Made by a program: the position numbers and the translations under genes. Below, piece by piece: positions 3,395-3,834 of a stretch of 5,257 nt of DNA (position 1 is the first letter of the stretch; each line of letters starts with the position of its first letter). The stretch is taken from assembly GCF_003334385.1 (NCBI RefSeq), contig NZ_QOWN01000082.1; one strand, written 5' to 3'. The notes beneath the pieces were generated by a model that was not told the origin of the DNA, did not search any database, and was given only the letters and a program-made list of their open reading frames with translations. Source of the stretch: Escherichia coli. GTDB lineage: Bacteria > Pseudomonadota > Gammaproteobacteria > Enterobacterales > Enterobacteriaceae.

Positions 3395-3494
3395 AAAGTG
3401 AAGATCACACTACACCATAAAGAAGAAACGAGTCAGGAAAATGACATCGAATGGCAACATGCGCGGGCCTGAGGCCAAAGAAATGTAAAACACT

Positions 3495-3512
3495 GTTGTT
3501 ATTTGTAACAAC
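3495..3512. promoter_or_regulatory. Perfect 7-bp inverted repeat GTTGTTA-N4-TAACAAC, a candidate operator about 100 bp upstream of the beta-propeller gene
   Basis: gttgtta tttg taacaac read directly from the sequence; the arms are exact reverse complements. The function is a guess. Confidence 0.2.
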
Positions 3513-3642
3513 GGAAACATTTACGGAAATTATTTGTCTTTCTTCGTGATCAAAAATGCTGTGTCTTGTTGGATTGGAGTGATGAGGGCTGCGTTTAGGA
3601 AACGCCCTATATTGTACGGTTGCATTATCGCGGTAGGGGTAA

Positions 3643-3792
3643 TGCACGTGTCAGTATGATGAGCTGACCACACTCACGTGGGTGGACTGGTATAACAATC
3701 GACGATTGCTGGAAAGGCAGGGCCATATCCCACCGGCAGAAGCAGAAAAAGCTTATTATGCTTCCATCGGAAACGATGATCTGGCAGCCTGA
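3643..3792 (+). pseudogene. IS3-family (IS629-like) transposase OrfB, C-terminal fragment only
   Basis: About 49 codons ending at the TGA at 3790-3792; it carries the integrase-core C-terminal motif WVDWYNNRRL. No start codon or N-terminal domains are present. Confidence 0.8.
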
Positions 3793-3808
3793 GTTCACAG
3801 ATAAAACA

Positions 3809-3834
3809 CTCTCCAGGAAACCCGGGGCGGTTCA
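3809..3834 (+). repeat. IS629 right terminal inverted repeat (IRR)
   Basis: ctctccaggaaacccggggcggttca; its reverse complement begins TGAACCGCCCCGGG..., the IS629 terminus as recalled. Confidence 0.78.

Follow-up and report, generated by a model that had tools for sequence, protein, structure and literature searches.

A truncated IS629 copy near a phytase-like gene of Escherichia coli islands: a probable product of successive illegitimate recombinations that left the native upstream region of the gene in place

The stretch of DNA analysed here (the window, 5,257 bases) matches Escherichia coli chromosomes along its full length at 99.8-99.9% identity, and its features are collected in Table 1. 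In strain PCP06022 the region lies in an island, where it is flanked by an Ag43 adhesin gene with P4-like island genes and, at its opposite side, by the fec iron-citrate operon. In the SRL island of Shigella flexneri, orf34 codes for an esterase-like protein and orf35-37 are IS66-family ORFs (PMC6980539); the likeness to that island lies in a phytase-like esterase gene (orf34) placed beside three IS66-family ORFs (orf35-37) and in the presence of the fec operon on the island (PMC6980539). The IS629 stub that is the subject of this work sits among nested IS fragments in such an SRL-like island of E. coli. A search of the whole window against Rfam gave no match to a known RNA family.

Table 1. 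Features of the window, with coordinates, strand, extent and the basis on which each was placed
Feature	Coordinates	Strand	Extent	Basis and remarks
IS66-family tnpB and tnpC	1-1782			RefSeq annotation
DUF6404 gene fragment	1822-1899		78 bp	RefSeq annotation
Esterase-like/phytase-like gene ('beta-propeller gene')	2021-3379	-	452 aa	RefSeq CDS; alternative ORF start at 3394
Native upstream region captured with the gene	3380-3534	-	155 bp	Sensitive BLAST and alignment
Candidate -10 hexamer TATGGT	3414-3419	-		Read from the sequence; 10 nt downstream of the Pho-box-like site; no -35
Pho-box-like site ATGTCATTTTCCTGACTC	3430-3447	-		12/18 matches to CTGTCATAWAWCTGTCAY
Perfect palindrome GTTGTTA-N4-TAACAAC	3495-3512			Distal part of the native block
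Two ACGGAAA motifs	3511-3517 and 3523-3529		12 bp apart	Distal part of the native block
Non-native patch	3535-3657			Without homology to Enterobacter upstream regions; 100% identity with esterase-carrying plasmids
Stretch resembling an F-type plasmid repeat	3585-3638		54 bp	87% identity with a short repeat of F-type plasmids
yacC relic	3656-3660	+		GAT (3658-3660) is yacC codon 4; AT (3656-3657) is common to both parents
IS629/IS1203-type stub	3661-3834	+	174 bp; IS positions 1137-1310 of 1310	BLAST against full-length copies
orfB (transposase) 3' end, pseudogene	3661-3792	+	Last 43 codons and TGA stop	Translation and RefSeq
IS629 right terminal inverted repeat, intact	3810-3834	+		Reverse-complement match to the left repeat of full copies
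Putative terminal repeat of another IS3-family element	3835-3851	-	Outer 17 bp	IS629 would have inserted into it
IS903-like (IS5-family) remnant	3855-4007	+		76% identity to IS903B copies
IS5/IS1182 transposase pseudogene, incomplete	3857-3987			RefSeq; overlaps the IS903-like remnant
AriR/YmgB-family gene	4112-4405	-		RefSeq annotation
IS3-family transposase fragment	4708-4812			RefSeq; more IS3-family fragments are annotated in the window
IS1 element	from 5130			RefSeq; runs past the window end

The product of the phytase-like gene matches Pfam PF13449 (Phytase-like, esterase-like activity) with E = 7.2e-43, residues 55-391 aligning to positions 4-284 of the 284 in the model. Orthologues with 60-91% amino-acid identity were found at 74 loci; the gene belongs to the resident chromosome of Enterobacter, Lelliottia, Pantoea, Serratia, Buttiauxella and others. 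An earlier account of this DNA made from its letters and open reading frames (referred to here as the sequence-only reading) had proposed that the native promoter of this gene may have been partly replaced when the neighbouring IS629 was truncated. The upstream region was compared with those of the orthologous loci. With standard BLAST, upstream homology reached only to about 70-85 bp before the start codon; a sensitive search together with alignment extended it to position 3534. Read on the minus strand, 3534-3380 aligns in 11 Enterobacter and Lelliottia loci to the 160 bp that precede the orthologue, and in 11/11 of these the homology ends at 3534. The comparison therefore lends no support to a replaced promoter: the 155-bp block is shared with the orthologous loci, only the patch beyond it, up to 3657, is non-native, and the IS junction lies 123 bp beyond the outer edge of the native block. 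As this native region is wholly retained, expression of the phytase-like gene is predicted not to depend on the stub.

The palindrome and the pair of ACGGAAA motifs that had been pointed out in the distal part of this block lie exactly where they were placed. In the plasmid copy of the region the palindrome is identical; Enterobacter has the non-palindromic GTTGTCACAGATAAAGAC at the corresponding place, and the palindrome is imperfect in every orthologue. As it is not kept in Enterobacter, there is no comparative support for its being an operator. At the positions of the ACGGAAA motifs (plus strand) the Enterobacter orthologues have two TTTCC/TTTC(A) motifs, and in the plasmids pE16-3 and that of AR_0085 (the AR_0085 plasmid) 11 bp are missing and a single ACGGAAA motif is left. 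Since both motifs occur in Enterobacter and it is the plasmid copy that has lost 11 bp, the two-copy state looks ancestral and does not appear to be a new duplication. When 3395-3660 was shuffled 2000 times, 14% of the shuffles contained a perfect 7-bp inverted repeat whose loop was at most 12, and 19% contained a 7-mer direct repeat within 20 bp. We conclude that neither the palindrome nor the repeat is remarkable when set against chance.

More can be said of the part of the native block nearer to the gene. The E. coli PhoB site (Pho box) has the consensus CTGTCATAWAWCTGTCAY. When this consensus was used for scoring, a Pho-box-like site with at least 13/18 matches was found in 57 of 58 upstream regions (the window and 57 orthologous loci) as against 3% of shuffles, and the copy in the window (12/18) was the weakest of the 58, the orthologues having 13-17/18 at the same position. 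Examples are CTGTCATTAATCTGTCAC in Franconibacter and CTGTCATCAAAATGTCAT in Serratia, and across the 58 upstream regions, one locus excepted, the best site precedes the start codon by 62-79 nt. The alignment of the native block contains a run of invariant columns, T.TCATTTT.CTG.C, and the Pho-box-like site falls on invariant columns. Within 3395-3460 the Enterobacter sequence has ACAC where the window has ACTC. A sigma-70 scan of 3300-4000 gave no promoter with both -35 and -10 elements, which is the result to be expected if the promoter is activator-dependent. The putative site resembles the PhoB-dependent promoters of Enterobacteria in that a 4-bp spacer separates two 7-bp direct repeats, a -10-like hexamer comes 10 nt later and a -35 element is missing, an arrangement that is also kept upstream of the orthologues; in contrast to those promoters, the window copy matches the consensus at only 12/18 positions. 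We infer that the promoter of the phytase-like gene is activator-dependent, probably PhoB-dependent, and untouched by the IS629 junction. In the cyanobacterium Nodularia, phosphate limitation induces a member of this protein family (PMC9846622).

To define the stub itself, the window was aligned by BLAST against three full-length IS629-type copies. Against the 1310-bp IS629 copy of the AR_0085 plasmid (locus L010, 8433-9742), window position 3661 corresponds to IS position 1137 and 3834 to position 1310, which places the breakpoint at IS position 1136/1137; the left 1,136 bp of the element are absent. Over its 174 bp the stub aligns without gaps at 98.9% identity to the full copies in the AR_0085 plasmid and in locus L004, at 96.6% to the copy annotated as IS629 on Shigella flexneri pCP301, and at 95.4% to an O157:H7 IS1203 copy. 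The segment is thus IS629-derived, and its identification in the sequence-only reading as the 3' end of the element (orfB C-terminus and right inverted repeat) is confirmed, although the length is 174 bp and not about 190 bp. Likewise, the start that had been given, around 3643-3660, is 1-18 bp too early, whereas the in-frame stop noted upstream of it is indeed present, the orfB frame being closed by a TAA at 3640-3642.

Within the stub, 41/43 orfB residues are identical to those of the AR_0085 plasmid copy, the TGA stop of the orfB remnant occupies 3790-3792, and RefSeq labels the remnant 'IS3 family transposase, incomplete, missing N-terminus'. The tip of the right inverted repeat lies at 3834, where the stub ends ...GGGGCGGTTCA; this repeat finishes GGTTCA and fits the 5'-TG...CA-3' rule for termini, and the left repeat is missing in the window. 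In common with the IS629/IS1203/IS3411 group (IS3 family; 1310 bp, orfA-orfB, programmed frameshift) the stub has the orfB C-terminus, the stop and the 25-bp right repeat ending CA, but in contrast to the full elements it is without the left repeat, orfA, the frameshift site and ~85% of orfB. The complete orfA-orfB with its frameshift site, which is needed for autonomy, is missing, and the stub is a non-autonomous remnant that is unable to transpose by itself. Scars of this kind are known: E. coli islands commonly contain truncated IS copies, and the incomplete transposase is already annotated in RefSeq.

A target duplication around the stub was not found when the left-hand GAT/TAT was compared with the right-hand ATT (window) or CTT (plasmid pMR0716_PSE and chromosome WP5-S17-ESBL-11, both described below), and this can be ascribed to the loss of the left end of the element. 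The idea that the stub might be a mini-element with a surrogate left end (TGATGAG...) was also considered and rejected, as there is no target duplication and every context has an identical right flank.

The junction is widespread. In a survey of 5,426 complete E. coli genomes, 2,246 had 80% or more of 3395-3834, the identity being 99% or above in nearly all of them, and 2,261 complete genomes carry 3200-3665; the stub is present unchanged in about 40% of complete E. coli genomes. Nissle 1917 and EC958 are among the strains that have the locus. An assembly artefact, in which a full-length IS629 in the source genome was collapsed on assembly, was the circumstance under which the sequence-only reading would have fallen. 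The chance of this is negligible, since the junction is identical base for base in thousands of independently finished genomes and is also found in plasmids that captured the block between IS1 copies. Such high identity across more than 2,200 genomes fits a recently spread island, and gives no sign of selection.

How the stub came to lie next to the upstream region of the phytase-like gene can be approached from either side of the junction. On the left, window 1999-3657 is collinear with pE16-3 (locus L005) and the AR_0085 plasmid at 98.4% identity; the identity runs to 3657 and then ends. The collinear stretch includes the non-native patch 3535-3657, which is also present in plasmids with a different right flank. 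Inside this patch lies the 54-bp stretch related to F-type plasmids, which about 390 E. coli records match at 80-90% identity, and which occurs twice, in opposite orientations, in locus L006 (3001-3054 and 5422-5375); it is unrelated to yacC, a plasmid gene that enters the argument below. Past the point corresponding to 3657, pE16-3 and the AR_0085 plasmid have 253 bp of spacer, two ORFs of 591 and 261 bp (common colicin/F-plasmid backbone) and a complete IS629. NCBIfam has no family for the two small plasmid ORFs nor for the esterase.

These plasmids suggest a model with a single deletion in place, which was essentially that of the sequence-only reading and was also considered first here. The ancestor would have resembled pE16-3 or the AR_0085 plasmid, with the order esterase gene, 520-bp spacer, two small plasmid ORFs and complete IS629, and a deletion of 2,220 bp, taking 253 bp of the spacer, both ORFs and the element as far as IS position 1136, would have left the window arrangement with 3 nt of filler. 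Such a model is attractive in that the window equals the AR_0085 plasmid minus 7349-9568, with flanking identities of 98.4% and 98.9% on the two sides; 13 E. coli genomes have the intact arrangement, in every case on plasmids; and in both reference plasmids only 1.08 kb separates the left breakpoint from a complete IS629 of the same subtype (98.9%). However, the right flank of IS629 in the AR_0085 plasmid is plasmid backbone that is unrelated to the window from 3835 onwards, and the GAT at the junction is left as unexplained filler. At the junction the esterase patch and IS629 have scattered matches and no more substantial microhomology.

The model was demoted once the same stub was seen fused to yacC on plasmid pMR0716_PSE (locus L085), which was found as a match to the right flank of the stub. 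On this plasmid the 174-bp stub, its breakpoint, the GAT and the right flank are all as in the window, and the left context differs. An in-place deletion beside the phytase-like gene predicts that the two stubs are unrelated, and would require an independent event with an identical result on pMR0716_PSE. To the left of the stub pMR0716_PSE has the yacA/yacB toxin-antitoxin genes and then the start of yacC, the first 19 nt of which are fused to the stub, with ATGAT before it as in the window. Plasmids with intact yacB and the 3'-5' exonuclease gene (yacC) align to pMR0716_PSE through its position 2819, that is 11 nt past the junction. The reason for this overlap is apparent from the sequences of the two parents. 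Intact yacC (locus L086) reads ATGAATAATGATGAGCTGGTCAC and begins ATGAATAATGAT GAGCTGG TCAC; IS629 reads GTGGAGCTGGCCAC, with positions 1131-1147 being GAAGTG GAGCTGG CCAC; and on pMR0716_PSE ATGAATAATGAT is joined to GAGCTGGCCAC, the sequence continuing ATGAATAATGAT GAGCTGG CCACACTCACG. At this first junction, then, yacC (...GATGAGCTGGTCAC) and IS629 (...GTGGAGCTGGCCAC) share a 7-nt microhomology, GAGCTGG, and the match is 10/11 nt with the flanking bases included. The microhomology accounts for the junction on pMR0716_PSE, and with it the GAT of the window ceases to be filler: 3658-3660 agrees with yacC and not with IS629 or the AR_0085 plasmid.

We consider a single in-place deletion unlikely on this evidence, and a first event on a plasmid can be put forward in its place. 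A full IS629 would have sat inside the terminal repeat of another IS3-family element, and would have lost its left 1,136 bp through recombination at the GAGCTGG microhomology, between yacC codons 5-7 and IS positions 1137-1143. The product would be yacB, a yacC remnant of 19 nt and the stub, an arrangement that survives on pMR0716_PSE and about 29 plasmids (at least 29 PLSDB plasmids cover a junction of this type). When a synthetic query for the progenitor (a full IS629 at the IS3-repeat site by intact yacC) was searched against PLSDB, 0 records covered at least 80% of it. As the rare junction and the right flank are common to the window and pMR0716_PSE, the stub of the window can be taken to descend from the yacC event. 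It follows that the loss of the left part of IS629 by deletion or recombination, as the sequence-only reading had it, holds for the 1,136 bp that are gone, and that the place assigned to it was probably wrong: the truncation probably predates the joining to the phytase-like gene and did not occur beside that gene.

The position of the IS629 insertion is indicated by its right flank. On pMR0716_PSE the right repeat is followed by CTTAGCCGCGTGTCCATT and then by ATTGCTGGATAAGATCA. Positions 2980-3021 of the pMR0716_PSE locus are 92.9% identical over 42 bp to window 5007-5048, which adjoins the IS3-family fragment at 4708-4812, and we read both as the terminal repeat of an IS3-family element. From this match it would appear that IS629 had inserted 35 bp inside that element. 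The IS3-family element that hosted IS629 sits in turn in the IS903-like remnant (76% identity).

A second event would have joined the upstream region of the phytase-like gene, already carrying its plasmid-derived patch, to the yacC remnant. At this junction ...GTCAGTAT and ...AATAATGAT have 2 nt (AT) in common, and recombination through this 2-nt overlap would have left only ATGAT of yacC. The state so produced, with 18 bp to the right of the repeat, survives in chromosomes like WP5-S17-ESBL-11 (locus L090), which has the left junction of the window and the 18 bp CTTAGCCGCGTGTCCATT that is also found in pMR0716_PSE. Both pMR0716_PSE and WP5-S17-ESBL-11 keep 35 bp of the IS3-family terminal repeat, and the window is without the inner 18 bp. 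These 18 bp are missing in the window and in most chromosomes, and the loss starts exactly at the tip of the right repeat (3834/3835); a third event, a deletion of 18 bp flush with the repeat tip, would have given the window state. The most economical order would therefore be from the pMR0716_PSE type to the WP5-S17-ESBL-11 type to the window type. Plasmids pB27_2 and pF1053-2 were tried as intermediates and rejected, since they are IS1-bounded recaptures of the chromosomal arrangement in which the whole block is present.

Two other derivatives of the arrangement were noted. In locus L091 an IS1 insertion at 3645 removed the esterase gene, and locus L092 has a larger right-hand deletion from 3838. 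The right flank of L092 was considered as a second repeat-flush deletion and this was rejected, as L092 shares ATT (3835-3837) with the window, so that its deletion starts 3 nt past the repeat.

The first two events resemble microhomology-mediated illegitimate recombination, with 7 nt shared at the first junction and 2 nt at the second and neither breakpoint at an IS terminus; in contrast to described bacterial short-homology deletions, they are rebuilt here from present-day sequences, among which no intermediate from before the first event was found. IS-mediated adjacent deletions start at an IS terminus, and the main truncation does not, its breakpoint being internal (IS position 1136/1137). 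IS629-adjacent deletions and events of the IS-excision-enhancer type have reportedly been described in E. coli O157 by Ooka et al. in 2009 and Kusumoto et al. in 2011. The 18-bp loss at 3834/3835, from the outer end of the right repeat, is like these; in contrast to them, the stub has no transposase gene and would need transposase in trans, and the main truncation, which lies inside the element at IS position 1137, is at odds with such a mechanism. A separate observation is that the two junctions are a mere 3-5 nt apart, which is a low-probability placement under random breakpoints and counts against a scheme of three events.

The deletion flush with the repeat raises the question of whether the stub has been co-opted, either as a terminator or insulator or as an outward promoter for the phytase-like gene, or through use of its right repeat by an IS629 transposase acting in trans. 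Inside the repeat, at 3825-3813, the minus strand has a terminator-like hairpin with a T-run after it, and this lies between the esterase gene and the AriR/YmgB-family gene, which run in the same direction; the terminator match is a weak match to consensus. That the 18-bp deletion begins exactly at the repeat tip would suit a repeat that is still recognised, although a single repeat-flush deletion was seen; and the junction is kept nearly 100% identical in more than 2,200 genomes, as is to be expected of a recently spread island. Moreover, derivatives without the esterase side or without the right flank exist (L091 and L092, respectively). Co-option is in our view very unlikely, and the stub, for which no function of its own is indicated, probably has none.

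Taken as a whole, we regard as likely a scheme in which an inert IS629 stub was formed and relocated by three successive illegitimate recombinations, with the promoter region of the phytase-like gene kept in its native form and likely to be PhoB-dependent. Its useful outcome lies in the corrections to the earlier account: the stub is 174 bp, the yacC microhomology explains its breakpoint, and the promoter region is intact. The series of three states (yacC remnant and stub on a plasmid, chromosome with the 18 bp, chromosome without) is a small marker of the assembly of an island from plasmid DNA.

A broader reading, which we offer tentatively, is that the phytase-like esterase may be an unrecognised member of the PhoB regulon, which would have been captured with 155 bp of its own promoter from an Enterobacter-like chromosome and carried by colicin/F-type plasmids into the SRL-like islands found in about 40% of E. 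coli. If this is true, the IS629 stub would be a mere by-product of the journey of the gene, and the E. coli copy would have the most eroded Pho box of the family. The conserved Pho-box-like site offers a testable lead on how this uncharacterised gene, widespread in E. coli, is regulated.

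The left edge of the esterase module retains plasmid sequence, in that a segment carrying the end of a DUF6404 gene and of a plasmid ORF shares 92% identity with a colicin-plasmid backbone (L008, a comparison plasmid; Table). On the AR_0085 plasmid (L010) the complete 591-bp ORF lies on the opposite side of the esterase gene, and the same 21 bp is therefore present at both ends of the approximately 2-kb module. This flanking 21 bp suggests that the module inserted into that plasmid backbone prior to its arrival in the chromosome.

The module has also left the chromosome. In pF1053-2, an IncHI1B plasmid, and in pB27_2, which carries MobH relaxase and MobI(A/C) genes, a block comprising the IS66 fragment, the esterase gene, the IS629 stub and an IS903-like remnant lies between copies of IS1. 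This block has been picked up again by these plasmids, and we conclude that there has therefore been traffic in both directions.

Coordinates of features in the window and on comparison plasmids
Feature	Sequence	Position	Strand
Site lacking 148 bp in the IS66-family element	window	1596-1600	
148 bp missing from the window's IS66-family element	L005 (pE16-3)	1810-1957	
DUF6404 gene 3' end, 17-bp spacer and last 21 bp of 591-bp plasmid ORF	window	1820-1937	
Colicin-plasmid backbone counterpart of 1820-1937	L008	2904-3021	
Pho-box-like direct repeat	window	3430-3447	minus
54-bp stretch	window	3585-3638	
54-bp sequence, inverted pair	L006	3001-3054 and 5422-5375	
50-bp spacer piece	L010	7361-7411	
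18-bp deletion	window	3834/3835	
Segment compared with the 18-bp deletion site	L085	2983-3000	
IS629-type insertion	L009	4893	
IS629-type insertion	L010	8433	

The 148 bp absent from the window's IS66-family element, whose tnpC ORF is 461 aa, is present in the ISEc8 copy of both pE16-3 and the AR_0085 plasmid. The 54-bp stretch in the window contains a small hairpin (GCGTTTAGGAAACGC) and shows 87% identity to a sequence found in hundreds of F-type plasmids; on comparison plasmid L006 it occurs twice, as an inverted pair enclosing genes for a hypothetical protein and for an IS110-family transposase. Part of the spacer upstream of the esterase gene on the AR_0085 plasmid, a 50-bp piece, is missing from the window. 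As this piece is 96% identical to sequence located at trbC in >1,000 E. coli and Salmonella plasmids, the spacer is a patchwork of plasmid fragments.

On pE16-3 (L005, about 8330-10590), the full IS629 adjoining the esterase locus is interrupted by a group II intron bearing an ltrA reverse transcriptase/maturase gene; the AR_0085 plasmid is otherwise identical, with the IS uninterrupted. The IS629-type insertions of L009 and L010 lie 62 bp apart beside the same 261-bp plasmid ORF, and are independent events in different F-type plasmids.

Comparison of the window with plasmid pMR0716_PSE (L085) and the WP5-S17-ESBL-11 chromosome (L090) revealed an 18-bp deletion (CTTAGCCGCGTGTCCATT) that is polymorphic across E. 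coli chromosomes and starts flush with the outer end of the right repeat of IS629. Such a start is expected of an adjacent deletion driven by transposase, although the stub itself has no transposase gene.

Upstream of the phytase-like gene, a Pho-box-like direct repeat keeps its position in 57 of the 58 regions compared (the window and 57 orthologous loci from Enterobacter, Pantoea, Serratia, Buttiauxella and others), lying about 62-79 nt 5' of the start codon in loci L012-L079. Degeneracy is greatest in the E. coli copy. This positional conservation suggests that the phytase-like gene family may be a member of the phosphate-starvation regulon.
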